A DNA stretch of 64,000 nucleotides, from the sequence record OR880646.1. One strand, written 5' to 3'. This document shows positions 3,715 through 34,903 of this stretch, one piece after another. The notes under the pieces are model-generated. The model was not told where the DNA came from, did no database searches, and saw only the letters and a list, made by a program, of their open reading frames with translations. Positions within the stretch are counted from its first letter, which is position 1; each line of letters starts with the position of its first letter. The DNA is from Escherichia phage ECP2301. The position numbers and the translations under genes are program-made.

Positions 3715-3889
3715 ATCCGCATAATACACCATACAGAGGCTCATTAGAGCTTCTAAATTTTATACGCTTATATGTTATAGTTCCTTCTGCTTTAGCTTTA
3801 TCATGAGACGCTTTAAAGCGTCTCATCATTTCTACTTTAGAGGAACGAATTTTATTATAATCTATTTCAGAAGTCTGGGTGTTCATCTT

Positions 3890-4096
3890 TCACAGCTGCC
3901 ACCATTTTTTGACTTGATAAGAATCAACCCACACTTTCATATTAGGGTCTGCTCTTACAATAGGAGGATTAACTTCTTTAATTGAACTATCATGGTATTC
4001 TTTTTCAGAAATTTTCACACAAAGATGACCATTCAAAGATTCAGTAAATCCTGCATTAATTTTAAGACGCTTGAATTTTACGTGTGTAAGCATCAA
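3890..4096 (-). CDS. small hypothetical protein
   Basis: 68-aa ORF in early minus-strand operon. Confidence 0.35.
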   Translation of the reverse strand: MMLTHVKFKRLKINAGFTESLNGHLCVKISEKEYHDSSIKEVNPPIVRADPNMKVWVDSYQVKKWWQL

Positions 4097-4379
4097 TCAT
4101 ATCCTCAATCTGCGATCTAGTAGTCTTCCAAAGAATACTAATGAGTTCATCGTTATATGGCTGTTTTAGAATATCCCGACTTTTCTTGATAGCATATTCG
4201 TATTGAGCAAAATTATTGTTTTCAGCTGCAATCTGAGCGTGCTTATAAAGACGGTTCAGTTCGCGTTTGTTTTTAGACAATAACTTATTTGCTTTTCTTT
4301 CTGCTTCAAGACGGTTCTTTTCTTCAATAGAAGAAATAAGCTTTTCCACTTCATCATTAATTTCGGGTTTATCAGTCAT
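4062..4379 (-). CDS. hypothetical protein (coiled-coil rich)
   Basis: 105-aa ORF, charged helical sequence, tightly packed with neighbours. Confidence 0.5.
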   Translation of the reverse strand: MTDKPEINDEVEKLISSIEEKNRLEAERKANKLLSKNKRELNRLYKHAQIAAENNNFAQYEYAIKKSRDILKQPYNDELISILWKTTRSQIEDMIDAYTRKIQAS

Positions 4380-6067: not shown

Positions 6068-6090
6068 AAGGGCCGAAGCCCTTAGCTAAA
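6068..6090 (-). terminator. intrinsic terminator / stabilising hairpin (GGGC-UUCG-GCCC + U5)
   Basis: Plus aaaaagggccgaagccc; minus RNA GGGCUUCGGCCCUUUUU. Confidence 0.55.
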
Positions 6091-6282
6091 CTGTTTGGCA
6101 CCCTTCCAGCCTTCGTACATCATTGCGGCTGATATTAATATTGCTCCTGCGCATTTTGAATATTTGTGATTCCAAAACCAGTTTAGAAAAACTTCGTCAT
6201 CAATACCCTGGGCTATCATATTTTCAAAGAACTGGCGACGAGCTTCAGCAATTCGTTGCGATAATTTAGATTCAGGATTCAT
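6082..6282 (-). CDS. small hypothetical protein
   Basis: 66-aa ORF. Confidence 0.45.
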   Translation of the reverse strand: MNPESKLSQRIAEARRQFFENMIAQGIDDEVFLNWFWNHKYSKCAGAILISAAMMYEGWKGAKQFS

Positions 6283-6498
6283 TTAAATTTTCCAATTACC
6301 ATTTTCATCAATAAATTTAATCCAGTCATTTACTGACCACTTGGTCGTATCGCCTTTTGGAGCAACATTTAAAGTATATAATCCCTGTTTAAAAAGCATG
6401 CGTTTGATATTCATATTTTCCTCAGCTATAACGATAACACTCGTTTGATTTGCGCTTAGCAACTCGTTGAGAAGTATTATAATCAAAATCATCATCAA
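6283..6498 (-). CDS. small hypothetical protein
   Basis: 71-aa ORF; N-terminus is hydrophobic low complexity, true start may be internal Met (MNIKRMLF). Confidence 0.4.
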   Translation of the reverse strand: MMMILIIILLNELLSANQTSVIVIAEENMNIKRMLFKQGLYTLNVAPKGDTTKWSVNDWIKFIDENGNWKI

Positions 6499-7042: not shown

Positions 7043-7351
7043 TTAATCTTCTATGATATCTCTATCATATCCAAGTGAAATGAGAGTTTCTTTGAAGTGT
7101 TTAATGTTCTTTTGTCTAGAATCATTGATGAAAATGACTGGATAACGAATGTTAAGAGATGTGAATCCAGCGCGTTTAGCAAGAGATACAATCAGTGGAC
7201 GATCATACTCAATCTTACCATTATTTGTAAGAACTTTATAGAAAGTAAAAGGAGCATTGAGCTCCTTTAGAAGTTTTGTAACTGATTGACATCCAGGACA
7301 ACGACCTACTTCATCTGGAATTCCATAGACTTCAATCTTGTTTTGTTTCAC
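7043..7351 (-). CDS. nrdH: glutaredoxin-like protein NrdH
   Basis: 102 aa with CPGC redox motif; position next to nrdG/nrdD as in T4. Confidence 0.85.
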   Translation of the reverse strand: MKQNKIEVYGIPDEVGRCPGCQSVTKLLKELNAPFTFYKVLTNNGKIEYDRPLIVSLAKRAGFTSLNIRYPVIFINDSRQKNIKHFKETLISLGYDRDIIED

Positions 7352-7353
7352 AA

Positions 7354-7566
7354 CTATTCCTTACTAAGAGCAGCATTCAGCTTATTAGTAATTTTATCCA
7401 GACGCTCATTGAACTCGCTAGAAGACAGTCCTTTTTCTGGAGAAATCAAACTAATCACGAAAAATATAGCAATAAAAGGAATAAGAAAAATAGCTCCAAC
7501 TGCCATAAACAAAAAGAATGTTACAGTTGTAAGAAAATCAGCTAAACCTTTGCGAAATTTATACAT
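7354..7566 (-). CDS. small membrane protein
   Basis: 70-aa ORF with long hydrophobic segment (FFLFMAVGAIFLIPFIAIFFVISLI). Confidence 0.5.
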   Translation of the reverse strand: MYKFRKGLADFLTTVTFFLFMAVGAIFLIPFIAIFFVISLISPEKGLSSSEFNERLDKITNKLNAALSKE

Positions 7567-7681
7567 ATTTTACCCTTAATTGATTAACCAAGCATTGATA
7601 AGCACTAAACTATATTGCGAATAAAATTCTGGACCAAAATGAAAAATCATATCATTTATAGTGTCCATAATATAATTCAAT

Positions 7682-8152
7682 TTAATCATGTTTCCACACC
7701 CCATCGGTATTTGACCAAAGTCGCTGATTATCTGATCCTCGCCATAGCTTTTTGGTCGGAAGATTTTTCTCATACTTCCCATCAATAATAACATCAACAT
7801 ATTTAAGCATTTCTAGTTGTTTAATATCTTCAAATTTATATCCTGTCCACAACCAAATGCTTTTATTGGGATAAAGATTTTTTACTGTTTGAACAATGCA
7901 ATGAACAACATCTCTATTATCAGGATAGAGGGGGTCTCCCCCAGTTATAGTTAATCCTTCTATATAATCATTATTCAAACATTCAATTAATTGTTCCAGT
8001 GTTTCACCAGTGAATGGAACGCCATTTCTAGCGTTCCATGTTGATTTATTATAACACCCTTCGCATTTATGCAAACAACCTGTAACGAAAAGAACGACCC
8101 TGCATCCAGGGCCATTCACAAAATCGCAAGGATAAAATCTATCATAATTCAT
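7682..8152 (-). CDS. nrdG: anaerobic ribonucleotide reductase activating protein (radical SAM)
   Basis: 156 aa; CLHKCEGC radical-SAM cysteine cluster; overlaps nrdD stop. Confidence 0.9.
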   Translation of the reverse strand: MNYDRFYPCDFVNGPGCRVVLFVTGCLHKCEGCYNKSTWNARNGVPFTGETLEQLIECLNNDYIEGLTITGGDPLYPDNRDVVHCIVQTVKNLYPNKSIWLWTGYKFEDIKQLEMLKYVDVIIDGKYEKNLPTKKLWRGSDNQRLWSNTDGVWKHD

Positions 8153-29030: not shown

Positions 29031-29504
29031 TTATTTGAATGATTTGACGTACTGAATAGAGCCTTTGCTATTCACGAAAGCGATTTTACCATTTTTGTTA
29101 TACATGGTAGCAGTACGCTGATAACCATAAGTTTGCTTACCAGATTGATAACCAACTAATGCAAAATTATCTTCACCCATTTTATTCTGCTTCGCGCGGA
29201 TACGTTCATGACCGTGCGCCATAAGAACCTTAGCATCGCCAGTTGAAATTGATCTACGAGTTTTTTCATCTTCAACTGTACTAACAAAGTCGTCAAATGA
29301 ATCAAATTTAGCATGAGATTTATTATACAGTTTTCCATCTACTGCATAATTATATCCCTGTACATCCATCTCAACTTCTGTACCATCATCCAATACAGCA
29401 GTGATTTTTTGACCTTTTTTAAATTTCAAAAGATCAGTAAAAGATTCAGCAATAATTTGAGAATTAATAGCTGCTTCAGTGATAAATTCTTGATATGTTT
29501 TCAT
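29031..29504 (-). CDS. internal-protein candidate with capsid targeting sequence
   Basis: 157 aa beginning MKTYQEFITEA, matching the T4 IPIII CTS MKTYQEFIAE as recalled; late promoter upstream. Confidence 0.6.
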   Translation of the reverse strand: MKTYQEFITEAAINSQIIAESFTDLLKFKKGQKITAVLDDGTEVEMDVQGYNYAVDGKLYNKSHAKFDSFDDFVSTVEDEKTRRSISTGDAKVLMAHGHERIRAKQNKMGEDNFALVGYQSGKQTYGYQRTATMYNKNGKIAFVNSKGSIQYVKSFK

Positions 29505-30520: not shown

Positions 30521-30962
30521 TTAAAAGAGGCTGTTCATTATTCGGTAAAGTGAAGGGCCCATCACATATTGCCACTGAGTACGAGGAATAAGAGCAAAAG
30601 CATCCATCTCTGGAATCATAACGCCATCTTTATTTTCAAAATAAGACTCACAACGGCAATTTCTAAACATCTCATGCTCTACTGGAATCGTATAATAAAA
30701 TAACTGTAAGTCTTTATTACTAGAATATTTAAATACACCTAGGTCTTCTATAAGGTCTGGATTATAATTGCTAAAGCCAGTCTCTTCTAAGCATTCTCTT
30801 CGTGCTGCATCTAGTGCGCTTAAATCAGAACTTTCTACACGCCCCCTTTGGAATATCCCAGCGATGTGTCATCATTCCAGGCTTACGAGAACCAGTAACT
30901 CGTCCCATAAATAAATCTTTATCTTCTGTCATAAAGATAATACCAGCTGATAGTGTTTTCAT
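30521..30962 (-). pseudogene. nudE: Nudix hydrolase gene (nudE / e.1-like) interrupted by +1 frameshift in a homopolymer
   Basis: ATG at 30962 gives MKTLSAGIIFMTEDKDLFMGRVTGSRKPGMMTHRWDIPKG then stop; removing one C from the CCCCC run at 30843-30847 restores ...RVESSDLSALDAARRECLEETGF... (Nudix box) to a stop at 30521. Confidence 0.7.
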
Positions 30963-31447
30963 TTTAATTTCCTGCATTCAGTGATAAAGTTATTTAAATT
31001 TTGAGTATATTTCTTTTCATCAAAAATCTTTTGCTGCCTACGTAACCGCCATGGCATTTCAATGAACACGCACCATATTCCTGATAGTACTGCTGCTGTA
31101 AAAATATTAACAAGTATAATTAAAAGAATCCAATCTTCCGTTCTGCCTACTGGACTTTCTCCAAAGAAGCAAAATACAAATGATGTCACAGGAAAACTAA
31201 TAATATACCACAGAATAACCTTCTTATCTGTGAACCAATCAGCGTTCGTTAACTTAGCACGACCATTTTGAATACACACGAATTTATCATCTGTTACAGT
31301 AGATGGCTTAACTGCTTGATATCCCATTCTAAACTCCCTAATTAATCGTTTCTTTGTATCTTCAGAACAGCCGCTCCAGTCAACTCTATCAACTGAAATG
31401 CCATCGTCCCCATCATCTAAATCATACCAGCGAGTTTTTAAAATCAT
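30959..31447 (-). CDS. membrane protein, paralogue 1 of 3 (2 TM helices, C-terminal CRK tail)
   Basis: 162 aa; hydrophobic helices; ends ...ITECRKLK. Confidence 0.6.
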   Translation of the reverse strand: MILKTRWYDLDDGDDGISVDRVDWSGCSEDTKKRLIREFRMGYQAVKPSTVTDDKFVCIQNGRAKLTNADWFTDKKVILWYIISFPVTSFVFCFFGESPVGRTEDWILLIILVNIFTAAVLSGIWCVFIEMPWRLRRQQKIFDEKKYTQNLNNFITECRKLK

Positions 31448-31806
31448 TTAATTTTCCTACAATCACTCACAAACTCTTCCATTGATTCTTTTTCAATATA
31501 AGACATGTAGTTATTATATTCCTTTAATTGTATTTTGTAATCCTTTTTTCTTTGCCAATTTATTTTAAAATTATCATAATGAAAATATAACATGGTACCA
31601 AAGAATGAAAATAATGAAATCGCTATAGTATAATGAAGTTCACTCCAAACTTCTATTATATTTACTGTGCCGTCGATATTTAAAATAAGACAGTCAATTA
31701 ACAATCCAATAAGACTACCCGCAAGAGCTGCAGCCAACGCCACAGCAAAAATTAAAAATGACTCAGGAAGCGAATATTTGACTTTATTTAGTTTTGGCTT
31801 TTGCAT
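31444..31806 (-). CDS. membrane protein, paralogue 2 of 3
   Basis: 120 aa; 2 hydrophobic helices; ends ...FVSDCRKIK. Confidence 0.6.
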   Translation of the reverse strand: MQKPKLNKVKYSLPESFLIFAVALAAALAGSLIGLLIDCLILNIDGTVNIIEVWSELHYTIAISLFSFFGTMLYFHYDNFKINWQRKKDYKIQLKEYNNYMSYIEKESMEEFVSDCRKIK

Positions 31807-32201
31807 CGTGATTCCTTAACAAATTTCATAATTTCATCAAATTCATACGCAGCAAGTTTAAGCTGGTGTTCCTTTTTAATCTTTTTACACTGTGCTTTCC
31901 AATCACGTACGCGTTTACGATAATGTCTTCCTTGATACCAGTATCCTACCCAATTTACGGGTACTAATAAAAGTGGAACTATTAATGGAAGAATTAGCAT
32001 TAACACAAGTATTTCGCCAGAATTAATATCAGTCATAACATCTAAAACACCTCCAATAATCAGTAGAATTACAAATGATATAAGTATTACAGGACCTATT
32101 AATACATCAGTAGAAATTATCTGGCGCTTTAATTCATACTTTAAGGGTTTACTTGGAAGATACATTGATGGCTTTGACATATTCTCTACATTCCTTAACA
32201 A
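31788..32201 (-). CDS. membrane protein, paralogue 3 of 3
   Basis: 137 aa; 2 hydrophobic helices; ends ...FVKESRCKSQN. Confidence 0.6.
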   Translation of the reverse strand: MLRNVENMSKPSMYLPSKPLKYELKRQIISTDVLIGPVILISFVILLIIGGVLDVMTDINSGEILVLMLILPLIVPLLLVPVNWVGYWYQGRHYRKRVRDWKAQCKKIKKEHQLKLAAYEFDEIMKFVKESRCKSQN

Positions 32202-32763
32202 ATTTTTCTAATAATAAATCGCTTTCAAAATTAGGATTTTCCACGAATTTATCAAAAAGATCATCAACAATAGTTAAGATATTCTTTTTACTAAGAATAC
32301 GTTTATTTTCATATTTTGTTTCAGAATCAACTATAAGAGTAAAGAAATATTTCTTTCCCTGAAATTTTACCGTAGTATCAATATAGAACAAATTTGACTT
32401 TTGTAAATTACGTTTAAACCATGCGTCACTTAAACTATAAACGCCAAGATAATCATAATCGTCATTTAAATAACAAACTGTCCATTCAGGAGAAATGAAA
32501 TCAGTAAATTCAACATCAAAATCACATGTCAATGAATGAATTGATTCAATACTTTTAATGAGTATTCCAGGACGTATTAAAGACTTTTTACCTCTAGAAA
32601 ATCTTCCAGAAAGACTTTCATCAGTTTCATATGAAGACCCCCAATAGTAATTACGTCCTTCTGCCATGCGTTTAAGAGCATTTAGTAATTGGTCTGGAAC
32701 ATCAACCTGTCTTTGGAACTCTTCAAACATTGAATTGAAATCACTTTGCATTTTCATTTTCAT
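32149..32763 (-). CDS. hypothetical protein
   Basis: 204-aa ORF; 5' end overlaps neighbour so start may be internal. Confidence 0.5.
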   Translation of the reverse strand: MKMKMQSDFNSMFEEFQRQVDVPDQLLNALKRMAEGRNYYWGSSYETDESLSGRFSRGKKSLIRPGILIKSIESIHSLTCDFDVEFTDFISPEWTVCYLNDDYDYLGVYSLSDAWFKRNLQKSNLFYIDTTVKFQGKKYFFTLIVDSETKYENKRILSKKNILTIVDDLFDKFVENPNFESDLLLEKFVKECREYVKAINVSSK

Positions 32764-32780: not shown

Positions 32781-32802
32781 AATAGGGGCCGAAGCCCCTT
32801 AT
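32781..32802 (-). other. intergenic RNA hairpin with UUCG tetraloop
   Basis: Plus aggggccgaagcccct; minus RNA AGGGGC-UUCG-GCCCCU; no U-run. Confidence 0.45.
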
Positions 32803-32804
32803 CA

Positions 32805-33398
32805 TTATTTCAGGGAATTAATGTATTCCTGAACATCGGCAGAGGTAGTTTCAACCCCAGAAATATTACCGTTAAAGGTTTCAACTCGAGCAAGGGTATC
32901 TTCAATATCAACCTTAGTCAGTGCTGCAATTTCAACTACATCATCGGCAGTACTAATTCCAAGGGCATTTGCCGCACGAGTTTCACGGATATATTCCAAT
33001 TTAACTGCAAGCTCTTGACGAGCATCATCTAACTCAACTACTTTCTTAGCGATTTCAATTCGCATTTCAGCATAACCGTCAGCCTTAGTAGTCAACTGCT
33101 CAGCCGTTCGACGATATAGTAAACCGAGTTTAGCATGCATTGTTACATCTTGACCTTCGGAAAGAAGTTTACGAATTTCACGCTCTTTTGATTCAGCCTG
33201 TCGATTCTTTTCGACAATAAGTTCACGAATACGTTTTTCTTCATTAATAGATTTAACAGAAGCAGTTTTTAGATCTTTAATTTTATCAAGTAGTTTTGCT
33301 GCAGCAGCAGTATACTGTTCTTCAACAGATAGATTTTTAGCCATAGCAGAACCAAGTTTAGTGCGAATAAACTCAACAATTTTCTTCAGTGTGTTCAT
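32805..33398 (-). CDS. coiled-coil protein (PspA/IM30-like helical architecture, tentative)
   Basis: 197 aa, almost entirely heptad-rich charged helices. Confidence 0.4.
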
Positions 33399-33455
33399 AG
33401 TATTTCCTTAGGTTGATACAATTAGATAATATCACGTTTTTAATAGATTGTAAAC

Positions 33456-34339: not shown

Positions 34340-34903
34340 TTATTTATCTAGTTTAGTTATTATAGCTTCTGCAGCAGCTTTTAGCTTAGATGCGGTGTTA
34401 ATACGATTTTTAATTTCAGTATACGCATCGCCAAGAACATCAAGGCTATCAGAATAAACACTTACACTATTGCGTTCGCTATTTGAAATAGAACCTTTAG
34501 TTTTGCGGTCAAAATCGGTGTACACGTCTTGAAGATCGCGGGCTGCCTTCTTTGCATCATCCAATGCATCAAGAGCTTTATTCAAAGCATTAACGTATTT
34601 TTTAGTGTCGAACATATTCTTAGAAATTTTAACAGGTGCGCGTTCAGGAGTAGCTAACACAGATTTAGGAACCTGAGCGCCAGATGCCAATTTCTTAGAA
34701 ATTTTGAAAAATGCTTTATTGAATTTATTTTCTTGACTCATTGTAAAAGAACTATTATCGATGTTGTACATTTCAATAGCTTTAGCTTTCCACTTAAGAA
34801 AATCGCCGCGGTCTTTTGGGTCCAATTGGAAGAATACTTTAGTAAGATCTGCTTCAGATGGTAATTTTGCTGCTTCGGTTAAAAATTCGGCATAGGTTTT
34901 CAT
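34340..34903 (-). CDS. internal-protein candidate with capsid targeting sequence
   Basis: 187 aa beginning MKTYAEFLTEA. Confidence 0.55.
   Translation of the reverse strand: MKTYAEFLTEAAKLPSEADLTKVFFQLDPKDRGDFLKWKAKAIEMYNIDNSSFTMSQENKFNKAFFKISKKLASGAQVPKSVLATPERAPVKISKNMFDTKKYVNALNKALDALDDAKKAARDLQDVYTDFDRKTKGSISNSERNSVSVYSDSLDVLGDAYTEIKNRINTASKLKAAAEAIITKLDK

Follow-up and report, generated by a model that had tools for sequence, protein, structure and literature searches.

The e.2-e.4 genes and related systems

The closest described relatives of the genes analyzed here are T4 e.2, e.3 and e.4 (UniProt Y06M_BPT4, Y06N_BPT4 and Y06O_BPT4; formerly msp7, msp6 and msp5 in record L13089). They are already catalogued as genes and are uncharacterised. 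The annotations of T4 and RB69 describe them as "conserved hypothetical, predicted membrane protein", and recent Pfam releases hold name-only families for e.2 (Phage_T4_Y06M), e.4 (Y06O) and e.5 (Y06P). We found no paper on the function of e.2-e.4 in the literature, and the HIDEN-SEQ preprint is silent on them. Our source was a 64,000-nucleotide (nt) stretch of Escherichia phage ECP2301 (OR880646.1), hereafter the window, with positions numbered on its given strand. Its sequence indicates a Tequatrovirus, that is, a T4-like phage; the 3.6 kb of DNA around the genes is 94-99% identical to hundreds of Tequatrovirus genomes. Three consecutive minus-strand open reading frames (ORFs) in the window are, as judged from sequence, orthologous to e.2, e.3 and e.4, early genes of T4, with the same order, overlaps and lengths (87% identity to T4 for e.3 and 90% for e.4). 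As genes they are ordinary, three of about 130 T4 ORFs still without function. What is new is a C-terminal tail that e.2-e.4 share with their neighbors across T4-like phages, which suggests a shared docking tag. The tag, unlike the genes, appears to be undescribed in the searchable literature. The three genes, with the ratio of nonsynonymous to synonymous substitution (dN/dS) and length in amino acids (aa), and the tail motifs of the window are as follows.

30959..31447, minus strand: ORF, e.2 orthologue by sequence, 162 aa; phrog_2203 "membrane protein", E 9e-78; PF26896 in homologs; dN/dS 0.28
31444..31806, minus strand: ORF, e.3 orthologue by sequence, 120 aa; phrog_2330, E 7.9e-61; dN/dS 0.32
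31788..32180, minus strand: e.4 orthologue by sequence, 130 aa from the ATG at 32180; phrog_2604, E 1.6e-70; dN/dS 0.36
30971..30988, minus strand: e.2 tail motif F-I-T-E-C-R, from a six-frame pattern scan
31456..31473, minus strand: e.3 tail motif F-V-S-D-C-R, from the same scan
31803..31823, minus strand: e.4 variant tail motif F-V-K-E-S-R-C, overlapping the Shine-Dalgarno sequence (AAGGAA) and ATG of e.3
32185-32202, minus strand: e.5 tail motif, within KFVKECREY, from the same scan

Other described systems resemble the locus in part. T4 Imm is a small early inner-membrane protein with two predicted transmembrane (TM) helices and, like e.2-e.4, is non-essential in single infection; to our knowledge Imm lacks a long conserved cytoplasmic C-domain and an F-I-x-x-C-R-K tail, and we know of no exclusion phenotype for e.2-e.4. 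The textbook class II holin is small, with two TM helices, both termini inside (N-in/C-in), a charged C-terminus and a gene near that of the endolysin. Phage 21 S68, for example, is like e.2-e.4 in its two TM helices, N-in/C-in topology, charged C-terminal tail and endolysin proximity. Unlike class II holins, e.2-e.4 are early and dispensable, occur in three or four copies and are conserved in the tail rather than in the TM helices; the T4 holin is t. The E. coli Psp system (PspA with PspB and PspC) is alike in architecture alone, coiled-coil e.6 being followed by small membrane-protein genes. Finally, the T4 capsid targeting sequence, MKTYQEFI(A/T)E, is likewise a short conserved end peptide on fast-evolving, otherwise unrelated proteins. 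That sequence is N-terminal; the e.2-e.5 tag is C-terminal and is carried by early proteins, both membrane-bound and soluble, and no reader is known for it.

A shared C-terminal tail

The tail is the strongest signal of the region and is far from chance. Across the six frames of the 64 kb, F[IV]x[ED]CR was found three times against 0.13 expected, and all three occurrences are C-termini (e.2, e.3 and e.5). An earlier reading of the sequence alone (the sequence-only reading) had assigned related cytoplasmic tails to the three membrane proteins. The resemblance is non-random, as this count indicates, and it is wider than was claimed, with soluble e.5 ending in the same way. We also surveyed 474 ORFs of at least 60 aa from the window and from ten loci of other T4-like phage genomes, the DNA scanned being the 64 kb of ECP2301 and about 8-10 kb of each comparison genome. 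Relaxed to F[IV]xxC[RK], the pattern has 26 occurrences among them. Of these, 25 lie in the final 25 residues of their ORF and belong to the e.6-to-e interval; the 26th is in an antisense ORF. The overall consensus common to e.2, e.3, e.4 and e.5 is F-[IV]-x-x-[C or small hydrophobic]-[RK]-[RK], with hydrophobic residues at i, i+1 and i+4 followed by basic residues, within a predicted helix.

The motif is kept in homologs that have diverged widely elsewhere. It persists in the e.2 homologs of RB69, UP19 and CHI14, which are about 31-35% identical overall, and RB69 e.3 ends in FIKECRK at 39% overall identity. Tails of e.4 orthologues read FVKEIRC in Mosigvirus and FVKEVRRK in Klebsiella phage KP179. 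In ECP2301 e.4 the Cys is displaced and the residues RC are forced, because their codons also encode the overlapping ATG-C of e.3.

Tail-bearing proteins in other genera

The two genes transcribed ahead of e.4 belong to the same pattern:

32149..32763, minus strand: e.5, 204 aa, soluble; directly upstream of e.4; PF26876 Phage_T4_Y06P
32805..33398, minus strand: e.6, 197 aa, coiled-coil; first gene of the block; dN/dS 0.03

We sampled nine genera (Tequatro-, Mosig-, Dhaka-, Jiaoda-, Karam-, Winkler-, Moon-, Biquarta- and Pseudotevenvirus). In all nine, the gene immediately downstream of e.6 encodes a soluble protein of 178-289 aa with the tail motif at its end. The e.6 protein itself is near-invariant and occurs in 1106 phage records. 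With the tails trimmed, eight of the nine e.5-type proteins form one highly diverged family that includes e.5, and that of RB43 (Pseudotevenvirus) was not recruited (E 0.85). A phmmer search with e.5 against 1.84 billion representatives gave six matches; apart from a single spurious repeat protein, these were fragments from T-evens. The motif of e.5-type proteins stands 5-26 residues ahead of the C-terminus.

In the enterobacterial Tevenvirinae, one to three tail-bearing two-TM proteins come after e.5. Further tail-bearing proteins of the e.6-e interval are RB69ORF133c and annotated hypothetical proteins of about 100 aa in Karamvirus MY742 and Moonvirus Merlin. Klebsiella phage KP179 (locus L016 of the comparison set) has two unannotated ORFs that carry the tag, one of 98 aa with two TM segments (...AWIRSCRK; 6075-6371) and one of 102 aa, soluble, between nudE and e (...LFIAKCRAK; 7381-7689). 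The pattern to be explained is thus that a near-invariant e.6 precedes, in each Straboviridae genus sampled, fast-diverging proteins with one short C-terminal motif; in enterobacterial T-evens one to three membrane hairpins bear this motif. Should the motif serve for docking or targeting, four or five orphan T4 genes would become approachable together. The capsid targeting sequence would then be joined by a second case of a constant terminal peptide labelling interchangeable T-even cargo.

Relationship of e.2, e.3 and e.4

The sequence-only reading had taken the three genes for tandem paralogues. This holds for the C-domains of e.3 and e.4, which are demonstrably homologous, and is overstated for e.2, which matches the tail of e.3 alone and e.4 not at all. 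Smith-Waterman comparison of single sequences was weakly positive for e.2 with e.3 (z 3.7) and for e.3 with e.4 (z 3.8), and gave no signal for e.2 with e.4. With shallow within-genus alignments, hhalign found matches in the tails alone. With cross-genus profiles, e.3 and e.4 matched over a 40-column cytoplasmic domain (Prob 93.5%, E 2.4e-7) and e.2 and e.3 over 16 tail columns (70%, E 4e-5); e.2 and e.4 gave no match. The TM helices of the three proteins could not be aligned with each other.

A hidden Markov model (HMM) of e.4, built from Tequatro-, Mosig- and Jiaodavirus sequences, was searched against 823 ORFs of the window and the ten loci. Its own orthologues were followed by e.3 (E 0.003-0.006, near full length) and by two-TM proteins of Moon- and Winklervirus, so that the best non-self matches were e.3 and two-TM proteins of other genera. 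On iteration the model gathered every two-TM protein of the locus, seven genera being represented, and recruited no established unrelated membrane protein. All recruits lie within the e.6-to-e interval; one late, weak match was to an ORF at 7255-7512 of locus L019 (E 0.008). These alignments indicate an old, now diverged paralogy between the cytoplasmic C-domains of e.3 and e.4. By the same comparisons e.2 appears to be a different protein, with an extra soluble N-domain, which has only topology and its last 16 or so residues in common with the others.

Two natural rearrangements join parts of these genes. UFV phages (P0144, vB_EcoM-UFV05 and relatives) carry an in-frame e.4(1-31)::e.2(87-162) chimera, with the join inside TM1 and e.3 deleted. 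In phage vB_SsoM_113 (locus L001, 4388-5362) e.5 and e.4 are fused through a 1-nt deletion in GAAAAAT. Both may be real or may be assembly errors; taken at face value, they suggest that parts of e.2, e.4 and e.5 are interchangeable modules. In RB69, e.5, e.4 and e.3 stand together and e.2 lies about 3 kb away beside nudE.

Membrane topology and pattern of constraint

Each of the three proteins had been said to contain two hydrophobic helices, and hydropathy, structure models and charge distribution agree on this. Kyte-Doolittle windows of 19 residues scoring at least 1.6 pick out two segments per protein. The e.2 protein consists of a 75-residue soluble N-domain, TM1 (76-96), a short loop, TM2 (104-131) and a basic tail, NNFITECRKLK. 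In e.3 the N-terminus MQKPK is followed by TM1 (17-43), an acidic loop, a weaker TM2 (57-76) and a 44-residue cytoplasmic domain ending EEFVSDCRKIK. In e.4 the N-terminus MSKPS is followed by TM1 (26-47), an acidic loop, TM2 (57-81) and a 49-residue basic cytoplasmic domain ending MKFVKESRCKSQN. AlphaFold2 (AF2) models place helices at 24-48, 54-108 and 111-128 in e.4 (predicted local distance difference test, pLDDT, 68) and, at low confidence, at 69-95 and 103-161 in e.2 (pLDDT 50), positions that agree with the hydropathy. The e.2 model was too poor for a fold search. That of e.4 found orthologues alone in BFVD, where it pointed to Klebsiella phage KP179, and no match in the PDB. Net charge is +3 for the e.3 and e.4 N-termini, 0 to -3 for the loops and +2 to +9 for the C-terminal tails, so that by the positive-inside rule both ends should be cytoplasmic and the 7-13-residue loop periplasmic. 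The three are thus predicted to be small hairpin membrane proteins, N-in/C-in, with a short acidic periplasmic loop, and we infer that they lie in the inner membrane.

It had also been suggested that the proteins are membrane-embedded factors rather than metabolic enzymes. The hydropathy is consistent with this, and no enzyme or defence domain was found in Pfam, NCBIfam or PADLOC. Scans of e.2-e.5 against these three collections gave no match at E<=1 (the local Pfam being without the PF26873 model), and this includes the PADLOC defence and anti-defence models for e.2-e.4. When 12 members of the two-TM family were compared with Pfam at E<=10, no family recurred, and PDB sequence searches with e.2 and e.5 gave no match. 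Several NCBI records label e.3 or e.4 "sulfurtransferase"; neither a rhodanese nor a TusA domain was found in Pfam or NCBIfam at E<=1, and the label is probably a propagated misannotation.

Substitution rates were calculated from six to seven Tequatrovirus sequences. Whole-gene dN/dS is 0.28 for e.2, 0.32 for e.3 and 0.36 for e.4, against 0.03 for e.6, 0.06 for e and 0.10 for e.5. In e.2, e.3 and e.4 alike, the TM1-loop-TM2 block has a dN/dS of 0.44-0.73 and an entropy of 0.3-1.0 bit, and the cytoplasmic ends a dN/dS of 0.08-0.23 and an entropy of about 0.15 bit. The hairpins evolve fast and the tails are nearly frozen. Fast hairpins fit an arms race at the level of the envelope; relaxed constraint explains them equally well.

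Identity, expression and dispensability

Each ORF falls in the family of its T4 namesake. The e.4 ORF matches phrog_2604, its close homologs all have PF26873 Phage_T4_Y06O, and it occupies the expected position in the order e.5-e.4-e.3. The e.3 ORF matches phrog_2330 (UniProt Y06N) over its full length and lies between e.4 and e.2. The e.2 ORF matches phrog_2203, has PF26896 Phage_T4_Y06M in its homologs and lies next to nudE; its N-domain has a conserved W-x-x-x-D-x-G-D-x-G-I with invariant columns. Homologs of e.3 occur in 631 phage records and those of e.4 and e.5 in 643 each, with the same distribution. Protein, phage-record and IMG/VR searches confine e.2-e.4 homologs to T-even-type phages. 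Searches of 5.8 billion proteins gave nothing beyond T-even homologs of at least 69% identity, fragments and chimeras, and an IMG/VR scan with the e.4 alignment found six loci, none beyond the distance of Mosigvirus.

All three are real genes under purifying selection, as argued by their dN/dS of 0.28-0.36, the early RNA of their T4 counterparts and detection of the proteins. In T4, e.2-e.5 all belong to the early RNA class and their proteins were detected by mass spectrometry (PMC9697503, supplementary files 4 and 6), with accumulation times that differ despite the common RNA class (PMC9697503 supplement). CRISPRi-ART knock-down of each T4 gene left fitness on laboratory E. coli unimpaired (PMC11879866, supplementary file 15). 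The T4 reference copy of e.2 (NC_000866; locus L003, 5480-5965) has lost 1 nt from an A run and gained 1 nt about 70 nt further on, which restores the frame. Stops lie between these -1/+1 frameshifts, so the annotated 102-aa product is truncated and is without TM2 and the tail. Unlike this copy, ECP2301 e.2 is intact.

A possible role for the tail

We tentatively favor, at somewhat less than even confidence, a reading in which the tail helix docks onto a shared partner and the hairpins are variable inner-membrane anchors. Each hairpin would serve as a variable membrane anchor or contact surface, and the constant tail helix would tie e.2-e.5 to one common partner at the cytoplasmic face of the inner membrane. 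The best and most economical candidate for that partner would be the invariant neighbor, e.6. An accessory complex of this kind, made early and dispensable on laboratory E. coli, might act on the envelope in membrane upkeep, competition with other phages or host takeover, and not in lysis.

Several points weigh against this proposal. The AF2 monomer models are of modest (e.4) or poor (e.2) confidence, and e.2 could not be linked to e.4 beyond the tail. The tag is less strict than the pattern with Cys, e.4-type tails having S, I, V or M at that position. The high dN/dS of the hairpins may come simply from relaxed constraint on lipid-facing residues. Knock-downs in T4 are without effect, T4 has lost TM2 of e.2 and UFV phages have lost e.3, so any function would have to be conditional or redundant. 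The pairing with e.6 is gene neighborhood evidence only, and the locus-specificity of the tail covers the scanned parts (the 64 kb and about 8-10 kb per comparison genome) rather than whole genomes.

The sequence-only reading had named superinfection exclusion, lysis timing and anti-defence as possible functions, which sequence tools can neither support nor exclude. In an Imm-like explanation, which we consider unlikely, e.2-e.4 would each block entry of superinfecting T-even DNA or block an abortive-infection effector acting at the membrane, the tail being a common structural end inherited by duplication. They are small, early two-TM proteins with a short periplasmic loop, the hairpin and loop evolve fastest, the genes are dispensable in single infection, and they are confined to closely related, mutually competing coliphages. 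However, the best-conserved part is cytoplasmic rather than periplasmic, no PADLOC model is similar, and the tail on the soluble e.5-type proteins of avDM7 and RB43, which have no two-TM partner, is left unexplained; moreover, T4 exclusion is attributed to Imm and Sp. It is quite unlikely, in our view, that the tail is instead a signal for turnover or modification, read by one enzyme of phage or host: a protease degron, or a site for an enzyme that modifies Arg or Cys (the T4 ADP-ribosyltransferases, for example), through which early proteins would be switched off or altered together. The position of the tag at the extreme C-terminus of otherwise different soluble and membrane proteins, its invariant Arg or Lys and frequent Cys, and the differing accumulation times of T4 proteins within one RNA class are all in keeping with such a signal. 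The 5-26 residues beyond the motif in e.5-type proteins would be unusual for a C-terminal degron, though, the Cys is not kept in e.4-type tails, and we know of no degron or modification consensus that the tail matches. Lysis timing is the least likely of the functions named. There is a very slim chance that e.2-e.4 are holin- or antiholin-like lysis regulators working with the endolysin e, as their small size, two TM helices, N-in/C-in topology, charged C-termini and position at least two genes (about 0.5 kb or more) from e might suggest. The class II topology is matched by prediction alone, and neither the T4 literature nor the comparative data show late expression or a requirement in lysis. 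The RNA is early in T4, knock-down is without fitness effect and T4 e.2 is broken; e has its own late promoters in the nudE-e spacer; and in RB69 about 3 kb of other genes separate e.3 and e.4 from e.2, and hence from e. T4 lysis, for its part, is under the control of t, rI and rIII.

The tails might finally be alike for reasons that have nothing to do with the protein, as a by-product of the next gene's overlapping ribosome-binding site and start codon, recurring at every junction of a translationally coupled operon, with the three membrane proteins unrelated. Each tail in the window does overlap the next Shine-Dalgarno sequence and ATG, an identical 16-nt stretch, AAATTTGTTAAGGAAT, occurs at the e.5/e.4 and e.4/e.3 junctions, and the RC of e.4 is dictated by the ATG-C of e.3. 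This explanation is largely refuted and seems to us very improbable. The Phe and Ile/Val codons precede the Shine-Dalgarno sequence, which meets different positions of the motif from junction to junction, and the Arg codon varies (CGT, AGG or AGA). The motif also survives where no gene overlaps it: in Aeromonas phage avDM7 it is followed by an 85-nt gap, and it lies 26 residues before the stop in RB43 and 14 before it in Karamvirus. In addition, the homology of e.3 and e.4 spans 40 columns, well past the junction. A repeated DNA element was likewise rejected as the primary feature, the 14-nt junction motif being found 13 times in the window against 16 expected, with mismatches allowed.

e.6 and the Psp comparison

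By analogy with the Psp architecture, the cytoplasmic helices of the small membrane proteins could bind e.6. The sequence evidence that e.6 may be a phage PspA- or ESCRT-III-like protein is as follows. A profile of seven e.6 orthologues searched against the PDB matched Synechocystis Vipp1 (sll0617) at a non-significant E of 7.5, colinear over residues 3-136, and hhalign of e.6 with the Vipp1 fragment gave P 0.0011 over 79 columns. The hhalign probability for e.6 with PspA was 3-21%, a similarity below database significance, and Smith-Waterman comparison with E. coli PspA gave z 5.2 in an end-to-end alignment. In the reverse direction, Vipp1 and an HMM of PspA plus Vipp1 ranked e.6 orthologues top among the 823 ORFs (E 0.017-0.6). 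Coiled-coil bias could be the source of much of this signal. The Pfam PspA model did not match e.6, and we found no paper on phage PspA homologs in the literature. RAST labels e.6 "host specificity protein", on a basis that is not visible.

We regard as a long shot the more specific reading that e.6 is a PspA/Vipp1 membrane remodeller of the ESCRT-III superfamily for which the tail-bearing proteins are docking adaptors, the block e.6-e.2 being a viral counterpart of Psp. The adaptors would then be soluble e.5 in all Straboviridae sampled and e.4, e.3 and e.2 in enterobacterial T-evens. If so, the inner membrane would be kept tight or reshaped in infection, and the variable hairpins would choose where. 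Homology of the hairpins to the Psp membrane proteins was rejected: a 12-member two-TM alignment matched E. coli PspB over 24 TM columns only (hhalign Prob 32%) and PspC not at all, and no member matched Pfam PspB or PspC.

Organization of the block and neighboring features

All genes of the region lie on the minus strand, in the transcription order e.8-e.7-e.6-e.5-e.4-e.3-e.2-nudE-e (lysozyme)-denV, with synteny to T4 e.2-e.8. The three genes had been placed directly downstream of lysozyme, which reverses the direction of transcription; they are upstream of nudE and e. That they are consecutive and overlapping is confirmed by the minus-strand ORFs at 30959-31447, 31444-31806 and 31788-32201, and the proposed translational coupling also stands, e.2-e.4 forming one coupled block with nudE. 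The overlaps are 32 nt for e.5/e.4, 19 nt for e.4/e.3, 4 nt (ATGA) for e.3/e.2 and 19 nt for e.2/nudE. The last of the three ORFs, as listed, encodes 137 aa from a TTG at 32201. Its true start is almost certainly the ATG at 32180 (130 aa, MSKPS...), because the TTG lies within the AAGGAA Shine-Dalgarno sequence, T4 annotates 393 bp, and the PHROG alignment (phrog_2604) begins at residue 8 of the listed ORF. The T4 annotation and every e.4 orthologue begin at the equivalent position. The remaining features are these.

32784..32799, minus strand: AGGGGC-UUCG-GCCCCU tetraloop hairpin between e.6 and e.5; a putative stem-loop in T4 record L13089
33426..33454, minus strand: sigma-70-like early promoter, TTTACA-17-TATTAT with extended TG, upstream of e.6
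30521..30977, minus strand: nudE, overlapped for 19 nt by the end of e.2; frameshifted

The site at 33426..33454 is the promoter-like site nearest to e.6 that could drive e.6 through nudE, and record L13089 annotates -35 and -10 signals at the equivalent place in T4. On the coding strand the e.6/e.5 hairpin has no U tract, and a part in RNA stability or processing is more likely for it than intrinsic termination. Two late-promoter boxes of e itself (TATAAATA, twice) can be read in the nudE-e spacer. In nudE a C5 run (30842-30846, plus strand) has one base too many, which divides the gene between two frames; the homopolymer reads CCAAAGGGGGCG here, GGGG in the 98.9%-identical phage ESh26 and GGGCC in T4. 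The frameshift reflects either a sequencing error or a nudE pseudogene.

The FITE of e.2 recalls the EFITE of the capsid targeting sequence (a possible gp21 protease site), a likeness of four residues in which e.3 has Asp for Glu; early membrane proteins are unlikely as capsid cargo. In T4, ipII and ipIII lie between denV and e, where the ECP2301 window has none. Two window proteins, at 29031-29504 and 34340-34903 (both minus strand), do begin with the T4 capsid targeting sequence (MKTYQEFITEAA... and MKTYAEFLTEAA...); these are cassettes of the internal-protein type in positions unlike those of T4 ipII and ipIII.

A pair of tandem small soluble paralogues, marked by GDYGSGRTYYPKG and a C-terminal WVSSSxxC, was not found in the ECP2301 window or in T4. 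Such pairs follow the two-TM genes in Mosig-, Karam-, Winkler-, Moon- and Dhakavirus, at 3731-4318 of locus L005, 5711-6306 of L017, 5832-6391 of L018, 6066-6604 of L019 and 5522-6103 of L020.

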